Shown here: piece by piece, positions 1 to 8,119 of the stretch
Position numbering within the stretch: position 1 is the first letter of the stretch
Layout: the number at the start of each line of letters is the position of its first letter
IMG/VR virus record: IMGVR_UViG_2778261380_000007
Coordinates: 1-29,228 of that record
Reading direction: 5' to 3' (one strand)
Source: a virus
Lineage: Duplodnaviria; Heunggongvirae; Uroviricota; Caudoviricetes
Length of the DNA stretch: 29,228 nt
Program-made: the position numbers and the translations under genes
Notes under the pieces: model-generated
Database searches by the model: none
What the model was told of the DNA's origin: nothing
What the model saw: the letters and a program-made list of their open reading frames with translations, nothing else

Positions 1-1158
1 ATGCTCACTGTTAAGCAGATTGAAGCAGCAAAGCCGAAAGAAAAACCATACCGCCTTCTCGATGGTAATGGCCTGTACCTTTATGTCCCTGTATCCGGGA
101 AAAAGGTATGGCAGCTTCGCTACAAGATTGACGGTAAGGAGAAAATCCTGACCGTAGGAAAATATCCGCTAATGACTTTGCAGGAGGCAAGGGATAAGGC
201 ATGGACTGCGAGGAAAGACATCTCGGTTGGCATCGATCCGGTAAAGGCGAAAAAGGCTTCGTCTAACAACAATTCCTTTAGTGCGATTTACAAGGAATGG
301 TACGAGCACAAGAAGCAAGTCTGGTCAGTAGGCTATGCAACTGAACTTGCCAAAATGTTTGATGACGACATTTTACCCATCATCGGCGGTCTTGAGATTC
401 AGGATATTGAGCCGATGCAACTGCTGGAAGTAATCCGCAGATTTGAAGATCGCGGCGCAATGGAGCGAGCCAACAAAGCACGCAGAAGATGCGGCGAGGT
501 TTTCCGTTACGCTATTGTCACTGGTAGGGCTAAATATAACCCGGCACCTGACCTTGCTGACGCCATGAAGGGATACCGCAAGAAGAACTTCCCGTTTCTC
601 CCAGCAGACCAGATCCCTGCATTCAACAAAGCACTGGCAACATTTTCAGGAAGCATCATATCGCTCATTGCGACCAAAGTTTTACGCTACACAGCCCTAA
701 GAACGAAAGAGCTTCGTTCTATGCTATGGAATAACGTCGATTTTGAAAACAGGATTATCACTATCGACGCCAGTGTGATGAAGGGACGCAAGATTCATGT
801 GGTCCCGATGTCGGACCAGGTGGTTGAACTTCTCACTACGTTAAGCTCCATCACCAAACCAGTATCAGAGTTTGTTTTTGCCGGGCGTAACGATAAGAAG
901 AAGCCAATCTGCGAGAACGCGGTATTACTTGTGATCAAACGAATCGGCTATGAGGGTCTGGAAAGCGGTCACGGATTCAGGCATGAATTCAGCACGATTA
1001 TGAACGAGCACGAATGGCCTGCTGACGCTATTGAAGTGCAACTGGCACATGCCAACGGCGGATCTGTGCGCGGAATTTACAACCATGCTCAGTATCTCGA
1101 TAAGCGCAGAGAAATGATGCAGTGGTGGGCGGACTGGTTAGATGATAAGGTGGAGTGA
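1..1158 (+). CDS. int: Tyrosine integrase (P4/Sf6-type, with N-terminal arm-binding domain)
   Basis: 385-aa ORF. N-terminus KPKEKPYRLLDGNGLYLYV...GKKVWQLRYK matches the arm-binding domain pattern of P4-family integrases; C-terminal HGFRHE and RGIYNHAQY resemble the catalytic H-x-x-R and Tyr. Recognised from memory, no search run. Confidence 0.9.
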   Translation: MLTVKQIEAAKPKEKPYRLLDGNGLYLYVPVSGKKVWQLRYKIDGKEKILTVGKYPLMTLQEARDKAWTARKDISVGIDPVKAKKASSNNNSFSAIYKEWYEHKKQVWSVGYATELAKMFDDDILPIIGGLEIQDIEPMQLLEVIRRFEDRGAMERANKARRRCGEVFRYAIVTGRAKYNPAPDLADAMKGYRKKNFPFLPADQIPAFNKALATFSGSIISLIATKVLRYTALRTKELRSMLWNNVDFENRIITIDASVMKGRKIHVVPMSDQVVELLTTLSSITKPVSEFVFAGRNDKKKPICENAVLLVIKRIGYEGLESGHGFRHEFSTIMNEHEWPADAIEVQLAHANGGSVRGIYNHAQYLDKRREMMQWWADWLDDKVE

Positions 1159-1266: not shown

Positions 1267-3441
1267 CTATCTAATCCTGAACATTACAATTGGAGCAGAG
1301 CCAGAAGATAAAGGGCCTGACCAATGGTATCTAATTCTGAAAGAAGACTCACTTGGAGTTCCGATAATTTCTATTGGACTTAAAGTTGCACCTTCTGCAG
1401 AACCAGCAGGTTGTCTAAACCCCAACACAGCAATCTGGTTTGGTGTTGGGGCATACAGAAAATTATGCTCAATATCAACCTCGTTAGATTCGCTACCTGT
1501 TGGGTTTGGCATATTCCACTCAATATAATCGTCAGTTGATTTCCCATTTATTGAGTTTCCAACTGTTGCCATAATCGTCCACGTACACGTCCTGTTAAGG
1601 GCTGCCATTCTATCACCTAAAAACCTATTATAACCATTTGCGCCTGAAGTGATTAATCTTATATTCTCTGATGCACATGTGCCAATGCTGTTAAATCCAG
1701 TGCAATCAGAAGAAAGCCCCTTCGCAGTTATATCTACGCTGTTCGCAAAACAAATTGTTGTTGAATTTACTGCATCGCGAATAAGAGCAGAACCCGAAAA
1801 CAAATTATCACACGAACCTCTTATATTATTACCACCGCCGGATAAGTAACATAAATTTCCTTTTATCCTCTTGGATGTAAAAGTAACATTGTTATTGTCA
1901 CCAGTAACAGAAAGAAGCGAGGCTTTAATAGGGGCATTGTCACTCTGTAACTGACCAATTTGGTTTATTGTAACTACATTGTTGTTGCCTGATATAGCTA
2001 TCTGATACCCATCATCATCAATTGAAGGTGAATATCTTTGTGCTTTTATATTGATGTTAAGTGTCCAGATTGTACCGTTATCCAGAAGCATGTCGCGGAG
2101 AGGAGAAATTGAATCGCCAGTGTAGTTATCTGGCATTCTTCCGCACGCCCTGGCTTCTGCGATGGCAACAACACCATGTGCCCCGTTGGTAAACCAGTAA
2201 CCACCTAAACTATTATCAACACACACATGCCTCGCATTGAATCGGTTAACACCCAGCGTCTTAAATCCATAGCCATAATACGCAGCATATACATGGATGT
2301 AATTTATATCGACATGTCCTGTATAAGGAGACTGATTATCAAGAACAATTCCATGACATGGTTCTCCGGGATAAAGAAGGCTTTGTTGGCTTGTTGCTGT
2401 TAATCTTGCGCTGTAAGGAGGAAGTCCACACAGGCCAAAAACAATATAATCCATGTTAATATCACCTGGCCCCCTGAACACAACCCCCTCTCTCCCTGAA
2501 ATTCTTCCCGTTATCCTCACTTCAGAGGCGTGTTCCTGATTATCATGAAATGATCCATACCCCTCTGAATAGAGAGCATGTTCTGCAACATTATTAATCT
2601 CAACGTCAATGTGGTACATGCTGCCGAATATTTTAATGGCAGTTCCATAGTCATTGTTAACAGTGTCGCAAGTTCTCCATGAGTTTGTATCTCTTTGCAA
2701 GTCAAGATAATTACCATCAATGGTCATATCTTTTATGCTAAATCCATATGGCGCATCAGACAGATTTTCCACAACGCCAAAGCCATGTGTTTTAAATACA
2801 TCTGTATTACTACCTTTTTTAACATACAGAAATGTTGCTCTCTTTCCAGAGCCTTTATGATGAACGCCTGTATAAAGAATGATAGGAGAATCTATTAAAT
2901 AAACACCTGGAGGGTAAAATATTTCCCCGCCACCATTATTAAAAGCAGCTAATGCTGCGGCATTAATGGCATCAGAATCTGATGTCAATCCATCTGCTTT
3001 AGCTCCATAGTATTGAGGTGTTTTCCTGATTGCATCGTAAACCGTTGAAGCGCCGAAACCGATATATTTACTACCATCTGTACCGCCAATAAGTAATTTA
3101 AACTGATCCGGGTCATACTTCAGCACATTCGGAAAATAGAACTGCTGTGTACCATACGCATCATAAACAGCCATAGAATGGCCTTGCACGGTTACGAATT
3201 TGGCAATCTGTCCGTTATATACCGGATATCCAGCAGCGTTAATGATTATTGGTTGCGAAACAGGAACGTGAGAACCGTCTTCATTCTCCACATAAACCTG
3301 AATCTGGTTTTCAGGATTTACTGGGTCAGTGTCAATTTTACCGATATAAATTTTGCCATTAGCTACGGCTTTAAAAGAGCGGGCCATAGTGAAGAGTTGC
3401 GAAGGCATGCTCACTACAACATTGGCTGTAATGTCTGTCAT
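1267..3441 (-). CDS. Tailspike protein (P22 gene 9 family): conserved N-terminal head-binding domain fused to a divergent receptor-binding domain
   Basis: 724-aa ORF. First ~110 aa ([43 protein letters not shown]...[10 protein letters not shown]) closely match the P22 tailspike head-binding domain as I recall it; the remainder is not P22-like and is more AT-rich. Confidence 0.9.
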
Positions 3442-3496
3442 TTAATTTGCTCCAGATACAAGGAATGGCCGCAGTGATGCATTATTAACCAAAAAA

Positions 3497-3515
3497 TACG
3501 ACCACCGTGGTCTTA
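3497..3515. promoter_or_regulatory. Mnt-operator-like palindrome TACGACCAC-C-GTGGTCTTA (core GACCAC-C-GTGGTC, 3500-3512)
   Basis: Seen directly: perfect 6-bp arms around a central C. It resembles the P22 mnt operator (AGGTCCAC-G-GTGGACCT as I recall it) with one change per half-site, and sits between the divergent tailspike and mnt genes. Confidence 0.6.
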
Positions 3516-3544
3516 TTGAGGATGCAACCAGCAGATAATAAGAT
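3516..3544 (+). promoter_or_regulatory. Candidate mnt promoter (-35 TTGAGG 3516-3521, 17-bp spacer, -10 TAAGAT 3539-3544)
   Basis: Hexamers read by eye, abutting the operator palindrome and ~30 bp upstream of the mnt start. Weak match to consensus. Confidence 0.3.
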
Positions 3545-3576
3545 GCCGATCCACTCACAAGAGCGAGGCATCAAGA

Positions 3577-3828
3577 ATGGGAAGAGATGACCCGCAATTT
3601 AATCTGCGGCTACCTTACGAATTAAAGGAAAAACTAAAACAGCGAGCCAAATCCAATGGCCGCTCTCTTAATTCAGAATTAGTTCAGATAGTGACTGATG
3701 CTGTATCAAAGCCATCCAAAATTTCAGGCTATCGAGACGATGCGGAACGCATCGCTGATGAGCAGTCCGAACTTGTTAAGAAGATGGTGTTTGATACGCT
3801 GAAGGATTTGTACAAAAAACCCACCTGA
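3577..3828 (+). CDS. mnt: Mnt-like ribbon-helix-helix repressor (Arc/MetJ family) with an Arc-type recognition beta-strand
   Basis: 83-aa ORF, near-identical in length and in its C-terminal two-thirds to P22 Mnt (...NGRSLNSELVQIV...YRDDAERIADEQSELVKKMVFDTLKDLYKK). N-terminal strand is PQFNLRLP (Arc-like) rather than Mnt PHFNFRMP. GAGG RBS upstream. Confidence 0.9.
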   Translation: MGRDDPQFNLRLPYELKEKLKQRAKSNGRSLNSELVQIVTDAVSKPSKISGYRDDAERIADEQSELVKKMVFDTLKDLYKKPT

Positions 3829-3927
3829 AGGTGAGTTAATTTTTGCATTTACCTGGGCCATATTGACTACTTATAAAATGAGATCAATATTTAATCGCCC
3901 AATAATGGGTGTATGTTGAGGTATATC

Positions 3928-4107
3928 ATGGCGAAAAAACCAGGTGAAAACACAGGAAAAAACGGCGGAATATACCAAGAAGTTGGCCCGCGCGGAGGTA
4001 AGAAAGACAATTTTGCCACCGTCAAGGACAACGAAAGGCTTCCGCCAACAACAAAGCCAGGTCATGGCTGGGTATTAGATAAGCGAACTCCAGACAGCAA
4101 AAAGTAA
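3928..4107 (+). CDS. Small conserved hypothetical protein (YjzC-like pattern, 59 aa)
   Basis: ATG at 3928 preceded by GAGG with 6-nt spacing (the ORF-track start at 3913 is probably too early); same strand as and 100 bp downstream of mnt; followed by a terminator. Motif KKPGENTGKNGGIYQEVGPRGG...HGW resembles YjzC-like small proteins (from memory, low certainty). Confidence 0.6.
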   Translation: MAKKPGENTGKNGGIYQEVGPRGGKKDNFATVKDNERLPPTTKPGHGWVLDKRTPDSKK

Positions 4108-4113
4108 TAATCA

Positions 4114-4135
4114 AGCCGGGTCACTCCGGCTTTTT
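4114..4135 (+). terminator. Rho-independent terminator of the mnt / small-ORF transcript
   Basis: Stem AGCCGG (4114-4119), loop GTCACT, stem CCGGCT (4126-4131), then TTTT (4132-4135), immediately after the 3928-4107 stop codon. Confidence 0.75.
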
Positions 4136-4486
4136 GATATGTCGCTCGCAGAACTCAACAAGCCTGCTCATTAAGTAGCAGTAAGTCTCGTTGGCTCTTC
4201 CTGGTTCAACATCAACGCCTACCCTTGAGCAGATATCGAATGCCATGTGAGCGCACTCATGGGCAATAGTAGATAGTTTGCCATTGAACACACCTATCAC
4301 ATGCAAAACACCATTCTCGCTGCTCATTGTATGAGACGCTCCGTTGGCATCCGAGTCCTGCACGTCCACGCCAAGTTTTTGATGCAGGCGTTGCCATTCT
4401 GGAAAGTCTCTGCAAAACACAATCGTACCGCTCTCAAAGAGCGGAACGAGCATCTTTGGTACGTTTCCAATGTTAACTTTTTTCAT
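4121..4486 (-). CDS. Small HEXXH protein, possibly a minimal ImmA/IrrE-like zinc metallopeptidase (121 aa)
   Basis: ORF with ATG at 4484-4486 and an AGGA RBS. Contains AHECAH followed ~20-25 aa later by acidic residues (VEPGRANE) and several Cys. Sense orientation relative to late transcription reading through from gene 16. Family assignment is inference. Confidence 0.5.
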   Translation of the reverse strand: MKKVNIGNVPKMLVPLFESGTIVFCRDFPEWQRLHQKLGVDVQDSDANGASHTMSSENGVLHVIGVFNGKLSTIAHECAHMAFDICSRVGVDVEPGRANETYCYLMSRLVEFCERHIKKPE

Positions 4487-4865: not shown

Positions 4866-6707
4866 CTACTGCCTAGTAGCTTCGTTAGTTAGGAGAGGGC
4901 GAACGGCGTTAGCAGCCTGATTTAACGCTCGCTCATATGCCGGAGTTCCAGGCTTGACGTTTGCAAGGCGGAGAAGCATGTTTCTTGCTGCTTTAGACTC
5001 ATACAAACGCATCATTGCACCAAAGCCAGCCTCAAGCCCCATTGATACGCCAAGAGTCGCAGTTGCGCCAATCGTCCTTATCCGGTTGGCTTGCGATTGC
5101 CCCGTCTGAGTTACTACATTTGCGGTGTCTGACCTTGCTGTTTGCTGTAGAACTTCATGAAGAGAATCAAGCTCTTTCATGTGCTTTCCAGAAAAAATAG
5201 TGTTGTAAATTTCACCGCCTGACTGAGATTTCAGCTTATTAACTTCAGTGATGAACTTGGCTGGAGAGTCACCGGCCTTTTCCGCTATTTTGCTGACGTA
5301 AGCTGCACGCATAGCATCTTTCCCTTTATCATCCAATGCGCTCCAGATTCGTTTCACGTCAGATGGTTTTCTGCTTAATACAACAGTATTTATAAGTTCA
5401 GGACTGGCTTCACTGCTTGCCTTGTTGAGCTTGTTAGCAATGTTTTTATTAAGCACCTTATTATAAACGTTTGCATAATCGGAATTTGCTTTAAGGTATT
5501 TTGCTGCGTCTGACGCACCGAGGTTTTTTGCAACTGCGTTACGAAGGTCTTTTGACATTGCATTCTCTACCATATTGGTAGCTGCTTTTGCCTGGTTGGG
5601 GAAGACCATAGCATCTCCCTGAACATTAGATCTAAATGCTGTTCTGTGCTGACGCAAGAGATCAAACGTAACATCCAAATCAGTTGCAGGGTTTGCTAAT
5701 TCTTCACGCAGGTTACGCAAGGATGTAAGCAGGCTTTGATTGGCTGAAGTCCCAAGCCGTTCCTGTCTTGCGATCGCTGTATTCAGAGCATTCATGGTAT
5801 TTGTAGTATCAACTGCGGCATTACCCATTTTATTGGTGACGTCATTGATAACAGCGCCAGCAGCATCCTTCCGCCCCCTTAACGTGGTGGTCAGAGATTT
5901 CACCACATCATCAGGGTTGTACTCACCAAAACGGTCAAAATAATTGCTTACCAGCTTACTACGCGTTGCATATTGCTCTGCTCGCTTTGAGCCCGTCCCG
6001 AGCAAAGCCCCCTCGGCATCCTGAGTAAGGCCGCGAGTGAAAGCATTTTTCGGCGGGATAACATCAGATGTCATTGGTGTCACGCCCATCGATTCTGATG
6101 TGGCAATTTTCTTCGCCACTTCTGGCGCAATATCACCTTTTATAGCCGTTATTCCACGCCCTATTCCCTTTGCTGCTGCGGAAAGAACACCCTGAGCGGC
6201 AAGGTTAACTCCGGCATTTTTAGCTGCATTTTGTGCGAAATCGCCTTTCTGATTTGCGGCCTCTGCCAGCGATCCAATAGCCATGCTTCCTGCCGTTCCA
6301 ACTCCTGGAACTAAATACCCACCAATTGTTTCACCGGCTTGTGCGTATGGGTCTGTCGGTTTATCTACTGGACGATAAACATCATCCAAAACTTTTGGCC
6401 CACCAAGCCCCTGACTGATTGCATTAATCAGACTTGCGCCACCCTGCAATACGTCAAATGGTACGTTTACCAGACCACGACCAGCCTGTTCTGCAATTTG
6501 CCCTGCACTTTGACCACCAGTGAGCCAATCGCCAGCTTGTTGCATCAATGATGGTTCTTCCCGTGTTGGTGCATTATTGTCCTGATTAACTGTTTGTTGC
6601 TGAACAGCCTGACCAGCAAAATACTCATCAATGGCGGTGCCAATATCTTCGGTGCTCGTACCATCAGGAAAGGTAAATGTCTTACCGTTTGCAGTTACTT
6701 TCATCAT
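4866..6707 (-). CDS. Ejection (DNA transfer) protein, P22 gp16 homolog
   Basis: 613-aa ORF, N-terminus [30 protein letters not shown]; position and size as P22 gene 16; start overlaps the gp20 stop (ATGA). Confidence 0.85.
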
Positions 6708-8119
6708 TCCACCGTAAATTGAATGCCTGATTTTGAGGTATATGATCCAACCTGATTCCGTGGTTCTCCTGAAGGTGTCGAATCTTGTGCTGGCGCTGCG
6801 TCAGTATTCATTGACATATAACGCTTAACGGCACTCCCCAATGATTCACCTTTTTTAACATCCAACCCCAATATCTGACCGCCATTACGCGATTGTCCAG
6901 GGTTGCCATTCGCGCTCATCCACTCGGCTTTAAACTCATTAAACTGCGCGTTTCGTCGCTCAAGGTTTGCCATTGCATCAAGCCATCTTGCGACCGTCTC
7001 AGGGTTATCCATGTCAGTTGGCGCACCCTGTCGAACGATCTCAACGTCTTTATCCGTTGCTGGGCCGGGAGGTAGGAATTTAAGAACCTGACTGTTAACA
7101 AGGGCATTTTGGCGAATGCGCAAATCACGCAATGTTGTATCGCTTCCGGTAAGTTTTGCGAACATGTTCTGTGCGTTACCGAACAAACCTGTCGTTGGTT
7201 TTTCTGCTCTGAACTGTTGAGCAAGCGCACTCATAGAATTGGCTGAGTTTGATGATGCTGTAGCATTGTTTACAGCCGTCTCGATGCCTTTTTCCATGTT
7301 TACTGACAGCTTAGGTGCTTCGCTAATCAACTGCTGAGCCTTTTCCTGCGCTTGCTGCATCTTAAACCCGAACTCTTGCTGATCCAGAGCCAAGCGTTGT
7401 GCTGCGATATTGTGCCCAGTCATTGCTGACTGATAGGAAAGGTTTTGCCCTCTCGCCTGAAGTGCCTCGCCAGCCTGATTGCTGCGGATTGTCTCTGCCA
7501 GCCTGCCTCGGTCAATTTCACGACCAGCCATCTTATCCTGAACAGCAAACGCCTTTTCTGGTCCAAGCGCACCGAGAGACATAGTAGTCAGCATGTGTGA
7601 TAGCTGCTCTGGATTCTGGATACCTGTCTGAATCATCCAGTCAGCATTAGCACCAACGCGATTTAACCTGTCCTTGTTGTCAGTAATGAATTTACTGTAG
7701 GCTTCCGGTCCCTGAGAAAGAGCGACGTTAGCCCTCATGGCTAAATCGCCCATATCGTTGCGTTGCTGATCATTAAGACCGGAAAACGCCTGTTGTGCCT
7801 GTGCAACAAACGCTGGATTTTCCTGGGCAAACTTAAATAGTCCCGATGGATCACCAGAAGCCCATGCATCAGCGTGAACCTTATTGAACGCACTAATAGC
7901 TTTATGTTGCTGTTCCTGATTGTAAATATCAGCAACTCCAGCCAGACCACGTAACGCGGTCAGGCCAACGTTATTTGCACCTGAGCGAGCCAGTTCATTG
8001 TTTTCGCGGATCAGACCAAGCGTTGCGTTAATGTCGCTTGCCTTTGGCGCATTCTCATTTTGCGTACCGATGCCAGCCAGAAAACCACCAGAATTAATAC
8101 CCTGTTGCCACGTAGCCAT
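6704..8119 (-). CDS. Ejection protein, P22 gp20 homolog
   Basis: 471-aa ORF (same length as P22 gp20), in the conserved 7-20-16 order. Confidence 0.85.

Follow-up and report, generated by a model that had tools for sequence, protein, structure and literature searches.

Mnt and Arc, two repressors of phage P22, are textbook models for DNA recognition by a β-sheet. IMG/VR virus record IMGVR_UViG_2778261380_000007, a stretch of 29,228 nucleotides that we refer to in full as the window, is a segment of a P22-like (Lederbergvirus-type) phage genome and carries an mnt gene in a setting different from that of P22. In the immI region of P22, mnt is accompanied by the promoter Pant and by arc, sar, and ant. 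In the window these are missing, and the start of the tailspike gene lies 135 bp from mnt, as the open reading frames (ORFs) confirm (Table 1). The original prediction, made from the letters alone, had called the locus an immI remnant with an altered Mnt and a co-varying operator. Is such a solitary mnt a leftover, or does it still work, and if so, on what? The sequence evidence favors an intact, selectively maintained Mnt homolog and hence a working gene over a remnant. At a rough probability of 0.55, we read its product as a solitary, functional Mnt-family repressor that belongs to a second natural class of specificity and that would be paired with its own operator and act in cis.

The protein has 83 amino acids and is 76% identical to P22 Mnt. 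It matches Pfam families PF03869 Arc (78.8 bits; cutoff, 20.4) and PF11423 Repressor_Mnt (66 bits; cutoff, 20.9) as well as PDB 1MNT (E value of 2.8e-34), and its residues 53 to 83 match the tetramerization domain in PDB 1QEY (E value of 3e-12). Alignment of its N terminus (MGRDDPQFNLRLPY...) to those of P22 Mnt (MARDDPHFNFRMPM) and Arc (..MPQFNLRWP) showed that the DNA-reading strand is PQFNLR, identical to the β-strand of Arc, whereas P22 Mnt has PHFNFR. The Mnt body with an Arc strand, as first predicted, was thus borne out. The N-terminal arm G-R-D-D-P, Asn8, Arg10, and the C-terminal tetramerization helix are kept, and Gln6 and Leu9 replace His6 and Phe9. Knight and Sauer reportedly identified Arg2, His6, Asn8, and Arg10 as the base-contacting residues of P22 Mnt; all but His6, which is Gln in the window, are retained. 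The Gln6 departure concerns P22 specificity, not fold. Apart from the shared strand, P22 Arc is unlike the window protein, having only 53 amino acids, no tetramerization domain, the arm MKGMSKM, and a 21-bp operator with TAGA boxes.

The gap between mnt and the tailspike gene contains the palindrome GACCAC-C-GTGGTC, the sole inverted repeat detected in positions 3400 to 3900 and without a second match in the 29-kb window even when 2 mismatches were allowed. By our arithmetic, about 0.03 perfect 6+1+6 palindromes are expected per 135 bp. The P22-pbi record carries annotations of the mnt operator, Pmnt, Pant, and Oarc, and gives the mnt operator (Omnt) as AGGTCCACCGTGGACCT, which agrees with the core given in the original prediction. 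One base per half-site is changed in the 13-bp core (T4 to A and A14 to T in 17-bp numbering), and over the full 17 bp each half-site has a further change, at positions 2 and 16, so that the window has AAGACCAC-N-GTGGTCTT where P22 has AGGTCCAC-N-GTGGACCT. In the same orientation, the layout is AGGTCCACCGTGGACCT-a-TTGAGA-17 nt-TATCAT in P22 and ACGACCACCGTGGTCTT-a-TTGAGG-17 nt-TAAGAT in the window, the last elements being Pmnt. Because the spacing from operator to the Pmnt −35 is identical, the palindrome is the exact positional homolog of Omnt. The two systems share an 83-amino-acid protein with a ribbon-helix-helix (RHH) domain and a tetramerization helix, a 17-bp odd-symmetric operator one base from the −35, the same promoter layout, and an orf59a gene downstream. 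Searching for an Arc-type operator to go with the Arc-type strand gave only chance-level matches in the window and none in 3442 to 3576.

To place these changes, relatives were collected from 80 IMG/VR loci (of about 560 hits), from the first 120 IMG/VR stretches in which GACCACNGTGGTCTT occurs exactly, from 6 loci in species-representative genomes, and from the named phages ST160, vB_EcoP-720R6, HK620, P22, Gally, L, CUS-3, Sf101, and VSe13 (L numbers below are our handles for loci). After removal of duplicates, 57 distinct combinations of upstream sequence and protein remained; the scan of species-representative genomes yielded only those 6 loci, so deep phylogenetic sampling is thin. Proteins with Gln6/Leu9 (QL) have an intact GACCAC-N-GTGGTC in 24 cases and the same site with 1 or 2 mismatches in 4 more. 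Those with His6/Phe9 (HF) have an intact GTCCAC-N-GTGGAC in 21 cases and one mismatch in 3 more. A recognizable site was lacking in the other five cases, four with an HF protein of the CUS-3 type and one with the QL protein of L085. Crossovers between protein class and operator class were not found in either direction among the 57, and this includes the case that would speak most directly against a matched pair, the window palindrome beside a His6 Mnt, which was specifically sought.

Aligned gap-free on the −35, the 28 QL operator sequences are conserved at each half-site position in 26 to 28 of 28, while the central base drifts (C in 9, G in 8, A in 8, and T in 3) and the left flank varies at its two outer positions. 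Conserved half-sites around a free center would be the expected pattern of a site read by two symmetric dimers, and not of a hairpin. The preferred Mnt half-site has been given as GTGGACC (PMC2726951). Diverged QL Mnts (those of L161, L177, and phage L) still have AAGACCACNGTGGTCTT ahead of the tailspike gene; dS relative to the window Mnt, computed among these three for L177 only, is saturated. L177 also has, at about 7760 to 7775, an additional half-site, CTAAGACCACCGC, which lies some 24 bp closer to the tailspike gene than the full operator does.

The original prediction took the altered strand and the altered palindrome to suggest coevolution. That they co-vary holds up, but the pattern appears mostly to be that of two linked lineages, closer to one event than to repeated coevolution. 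The history of the gene itself can be read in part from a comparison with P22: in the first 50 codons of mnt dS is saturated, and in the last 33 it is 0.36, which indicates a recombination joint with P22 inside mnt, near codon 50 (about position 3725). The N-terminal domain, the operator, and the promoter would thus form a specificity cassette of about 250 bp that moves as one block, and the C-terminal third of mnt and orf59a appear to have been swapped separately with P22-type phages.

Outside the Mnt clade, a 140-amino-acid RHH protein with the strand REDPQFKLR and an unrelated C-terminal domain faces three GGACCACNGTGGTCC sites, GGACCAC(C/G)GTGGTCC. This pairing of an R-x-D-P-Q strand with GACCAC gives independent support to the match of strand and site. 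The gene (MSREDPQFKLRMP...) was seen in L119 (about 3250 to 3340) and L122 (about 5280 to 5370), IMG/VR records 2546826726_000001 and 2757320411_000003, on contigs of 54 to 57% G+C; it is divergent from a small excisionase-like gene, and the three palindromes lie in the gap between the two. It may be the Arc/Mnt-domain gene that has been described in Pseudomonas Pf prophages (PMC7549136). Of the first 120 stretches with GACCACNGTGGTCTT, 27 matches adjoin a QL mnt and a handful are reverse-strand readings of the same palindromes; the remaining matches are mostly chance, in unrelated GC-rich contigs. A third class of tailspike-adjacent Mnt-like proteins, with the strand YDEAQFHLRL, was found in Sf101 (L215, 1865 to 1952), VSe13 (L216, 1851 to 1985), and Buttiauxella (L088). 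There, another inverted repeat, xTACC-N5-GGTAx, replaces the palindrome directly upstream of the same ATTG(A/T)G −35.

Several observations speak for a gene in use. Between the window and ST160, mnt differs by 19 synonymous and 9 nonsynonymous changes, and the ratio of nonsynonymous to synonymous rates (dN/dS) of 0.11 indicates purifying selection. None of the 43 distinct QL loci has a disrupted mnt ORF. The module occurs in Salmonella and Escherichia coli phages and in a Symbiopectobacterium genome (L085), and a 521-bp probe matches 1,007 of 5,426 complete E. coli genomes; in 102 of these, the match covers at least 80% of the probe.

The promoter of mnt is also recognizable among the relatives. 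With our own weight matrix, Pmnt ranked first among rightward promoters in nearly all of 29 distinct intergenic sequences; it came second in L034, L043, and L161 and fell outside the top two in L081 and L085. Its layout matches the annotated P22 Pmnt, its distance from the operator center is fixed across the relatives scored, and its hexamers among them are TTGAGG/TTGTGG-17-TAAGAT/TATGAT. A stricter consensus scan omits it, with 8 of 12 matches by our count against a threshold of 9 of 12. The strong Pant of P22 is TTGACA-17-TATATT; the equivalent hexamers in the window are TCGGCA and TGCATC, and a credible counterpart of Pant thus seems to be missing there.

In the role that we propose, an Mnt tetramer would bind the single 17-bp site AAGACCAC-N-GTGGTCTT (ACGACCACCGTGGTCTT in the window), and Gln6 would read the A:T pair at operator position 4/14; the operator base touched by His6 is taken here from secondary citations. 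We infer operator binding, the tetrameric state, and the altered base preference from sequence. The window, Gally, and ST160 each have a single copy of the predicted operator, and no second one that would mark a distant target was found at up to 2 mismatches. Any action within the phage genome would therefore fall at 3498 to 3514, and since there is no credible Pant, a repressor confined to acting in cis is most likely. Its own expression from Pmnt would be under its control, and when bound, it would occupy the stretch that any leftward transcription must cross to reach the tailspike gene. Probably only late transcripts that are antiterminated get as far as that gene, and these must pass the operator. 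The likeliest role would be local control at Pmnt and of the gap between mnt and the tailspike gene.

A number of points weigh against this proposal. The co-variation could reflect co-inheritance of neighboring DNA and not selection for matched specificity, and some lineages have a degraded left half-site (L081, L085, L012, and L025). In 1987, Vershon et al. reportedly found in vitro that P22 Mnt bound at the same position has no direct repressing effect on Pmnt; since Pant is missing as well, a purely autoregulatory role is left without an obvious mechanism. In Kapi1, an E. coli P22-like lysogen with mnt, arc, and ant, mnt transcripts were undetected by RNA sequencing (PMC12922286). The Kapi1 result is also at odds with the textbook role of P22 Mnt, and it bears on the amount of Mnt in such prophages.

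Because of the P22 in vitro result, we keep as the main rival, although it is rather unlikely, the idea that the main effect of the tetramer on its operator is to control transcription that runs leftward into gene 9, the tailspike gene. The tetramer would do so by repressing a weak promoter at the old Pant position or by acting as a roadblock to late-operon polymerases that cross mnt antisense, and the tailspike would be silent in the prophage, or its level and timing tuned. Gene order fits this well: the solitary Mnt-family gene is always divergent from the tailspike gene, in QL loci, in the EAQFHLR class (Sf101 and VSe13), and in L081/L085, and the operator stands in the sole path to gene 9. 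The extra half-site of L177 lies on the gene 9 side, and in P22 the ant moron affects read-through into gene 9, in which Mnt or Arc may participate (PMC2629481). The promoter evidence is less kind to it. Phage L retains a near-Pant TCGGCA-17-TATATC, but the −10 equivalent in the window, TGCATC, matches at 2 of 6 positions and is without the key A and T. For the gap in the window, a consensus scan listed no leftward promoter, and the weight matrix, applied to the 29 intergenic sequences, gave no conserved leftward sigma-70 promoter, only weak nonconserved candidates such as TTTTGT-16-TATTAT, which overlaps the Pmnt −10. The promoter into the tailspike gene that the original prediction had considered as the repressor's target therefore found little support. 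Furthermore, leftward transcripts that are not antiterminated would already be stopped by the terminator-like hairpin at the end of mnt, before crossing mnt on the way to the tailspike gene; the records of HK620 (tMNT) and phage L mark a terminator at the homologous site. It also counts against a roadblock ahead of an essential late gene that we know of no precedent for one.

The Pmnt −10 of the window lies inside a near-palindrome, ATAATAAGAT (3533 to 3544), the Salmonella phage equivalent (L001/L213) being ATCATATGAT. The opposite strand therefore reads as a good −10 (TATTAT or TATGAT), but with a poor −35 (TTTTGT).

An action in trans is improbable. Here, the resident solitary Mnt would silence the Mnt-controlled antirepressor promoter of incoming related phages, so that a heteroimmune phage that superinfects would be kept from inducing the prophage. 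Purifying selection on an orphan repressor would suit such a guard, and P22 Mnt does prevent synthesis of Arc and Ant by superinfecting phage (PMC7549136). However, a target with the matching site is hard to find. Neither arc nor ant lies upstream of mnt in any of the 43 distinct QL loci, each ant-linked Mnt that we observed has a GTCCAC-type site or no Omnt palindrome, and the other GACCACNGTGGTCTT matches in the first 120 stretches are in unrelated contexts, which were not screened for ant genes.

Slightly less probable still is the remnant of the original prediction, in which mnt and its operator would persist as neutral leftovers after the deletion of arc and ant. The absence of the partners is real: tblastn with P22 Arc, Ant, and SieA and with CUS-3 Ant found no homolog in the 29-kb window, where only mnt was matched, and sar is absent too. 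HK620 shows that immI can decay at this very position, and the possibility has been raised for phage L (PMC8022706). Nevertheless, the dN/dS of 0.11, the ORF intact in 43 of 43 QL loci, operator half-sites held at 26 to 28 of 28 while the center drifts, and a module found in several genera and at full length in about 100 complete E. coli genomes do not look like decay. Nor is there a DNA scar of arc or ant in the window, whose homology to the P22 arc-ant block is limited to the tailspike leader (3442 to 3474) and the operator/−35 region (3483 to 3523). The absence of arc and ant stands, but the label of remnant does not.

Finally, a reading of the palindrome as a hairpin of the tailspike strand, in RNA or as a terminator, and not as a protein site is very unlikely: a minus-strand scan flags GACCACGGTGGTC followed by GTATTTTTTG (3488 to 3512) as terminator-like, but the stem has only 5 to 6 bp with a loop of 1 to 3 nucleotides, the T-run exists only in some E. 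coli variants and is absent from ST160 and the phage L type, and change is confined to the central base and is not compensatory, which fits a dimer-of-dimers protein site. As a terminator, the palindrome was rejected on the short stem and the nonconserved T-run, which is probably incidental.

The distribution of the two protein classes also follows the neighboring genes. A second RHH gene with the strand PQ(F/V)NLR lies within 700 bp upstream of mnt in 38 of 38 distinct HF loci but in 0 of 43 distinct QL loci. The paralog is a divergent Arc at 33 of the HF loci and a tandem CUS-3-type gene at the other 5. We did not find this pattern, HF with a paralog and QL solitary, in the literature searched. 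As a tentative interpretation, which we regard as possible but not probable, QL would be the ancestral state of a solitary Mnt, and HF with GTCCAC..GTGGAC a derived state fixed only beside a second, Q-strand RHH paralog. The association may be simple linkage of two or three old haplotypes, and because this explains the same data, our confidence in the ancestral QL state is low. If true, it would be a natural specificity displacement that avoids cross talk or heterodimers between paralogous repressors, and it would provide a clean natural pair for an RHH recognition code, Gln6 with A and His6 with T at operator position 4. In the CUS-3-type loci (CUS-3 itself, L214, 1980 to 3009; L045, L048, and L079), the HF Mnt is the second of a tandem pair whose first gene encodes an 85-amino-acid RHH protein (..NPQVNLRLP..); these loci have no Omnt palindrome, and a small Arc-like ORF (MKVKTLRMPEKLEK...) lies on the opposite strand, adjoining ant.

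How far is this locus new? Altered-specificity Mnt (His6 to Pro) and N-terminal Arc/Mnt hybrids are said to have been made by Youderian in 1983, Knight and Sauer in 1989, and Raumann in 1995. Those laboratory variants were engineered, whereas the window Mnt occurs in nature, as a widespread allele whose natural operator matches it. As cited in PMC3413123, residue 6 and the N-terminal arm set Mnt specificity, and Arc/Mnt ribbon swaps change operator choice. Unlike such swaps, the window protein keeps the Mnt arm and an operator of Mnt type, not Arc type. The literature searched, which did not include the primary Mnt-operator papers, contains no statement on the Gln6/Leu9 strand or the matched operator change. 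The mnt-only arrangement itself is not new. It has been reported for ST64T, ST104, and Para1 (PMC2629481) and for phage L (PMC8022706), has been treated by Villafane et al. and Zaworski et al., and is a common, already annotated feature of P22-like prophages.

Phages L, ST64T, ST104, SE1, ST160, and Gally share the window architecture of tailspike gene, operator, and mnt with no arc or ant. The mnt-only loci have the GACCAC-N-GTGGTC site within a gap of 135 to 148 bp, and so does the window. The Gally "Mnt repressor" is 100% identical to the window protein. Phage L Mnt begins MGRDDPQFNLRLPY as in the window, and its operator is the perfect 19-mer TAAGACCACGGTGGTCTTA; the C-terminal domains of the phage L, ST64T, and ST104 proteins have diverged from that of the window (70% overall identity). 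The window differs from this group of phages in a 14-bp leader deletion and an asymmetric outer operator base (AC versus AA). The immI vestige of HK620 resembles the locus in its position between gene 16 and the tailspike gene and in related flanking DNA, but the HK620 record has only annotated mnt and ant remnants with terminators, whereas the window mnt is intact and under selection. The object is therefore largely ordinary, of a published and widespread kind, with a natural specificity allele as its one uncharacterized detail. With one contact residue and one base pair per half-site changed, it offers a ready test of recognition rules. In addition, the function of a lone mnt of the phage L and ST64T type, which was left open in the genome papers, is narrowed to one site between mnt and the tailspike gene.

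Table 1. Features in and around the mnt locus of the window
Feature	Position	Strand	Remarks
int	1-1158	+	
Tailspike gene (gene 9 homolog), divergent from mnt	1267-3441	-	724-amino-acid ORF; Pfam Head_binding
Gap between mnt and tailspike gene	3442-3576		135 bp
Tailspike leader and ribosome-binding site (RBS)	3442-3474	-	CTGGAGCAAATTAA ahead of ATG; homologous to P22 gene 9 leader
Predicted operator, 17 bp	3498-3514		ACGACCACCGTGGTCTT; core GACCAC-C-GTGGTC at 3500-3512; positional homolog of P22 Omnt
Pmnt	3516-3544	+	-35 TTGAGG (3516-3521), 17-nt spacer, -10 TAAGAT (3539-3544)
mnt RBS	3565-3568	+	GAGG, 8 nt ahead of ATG; read from sequence; conserved in alignment
mnt	3577-3828	+	83 codons; Gln6/Leu9 class; RHH domain, then Mnt tetramerization helix
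Terminator-like hairpin, mnt end	3818-3837	-	Called on minus strand (AACTCACCTTCAGGTGGGTT + TTTTGTAC)
orf59a homolog, downstream of mnt	3928-4107	+	tblastn with P22 orf59a, 98% over 59 amino acids
Putative hkcC-like ORF	4121-4486	-	
Injection genes 16 and 20			After hkcC-like ORF; assigned by synteny

Among the neighboring genes (Table 1), the orf59a homolog has a weak match to Pfam YjzC, under the cutoff. Residues 1 to 112 of the tailspike match Pfam Head_binding with 221 bits, a P22-type head-binding N terminus. The tailspike body is pectate-lyase/rhamnogalacturonase-like (Pfam PF12708) and differs from the P22 endorhamnosidase; together with the conserved N terminus, this fits the usual swapping of receptor-binding modules.

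The tailspike leader is 94% identical to the P22 immI segment over 33 bp by blastn. Most relatives, with or without ant, have a hairpin with a 7-bp stem about 25 nucleotides upstream of the tailspike RBS on the tailspike strand, which in P22 is CCGTAGC-cat-GCTGCGG. The hairpin is intact in L004 (1085 to 1105), L001, L012, L081, L085, and L161, and compensatory changes are seen in L022 (CTGCAGT/GCTGCAG), L161 (CCGCTGC/GCAGTGG), L085, and L081. According to alignment and folds, the 14-bp deletion in the window (3460 to 3485) takes out one arm, so that this conserved hairpin is lost. The same deletion is also found in a few E. coli relatives.

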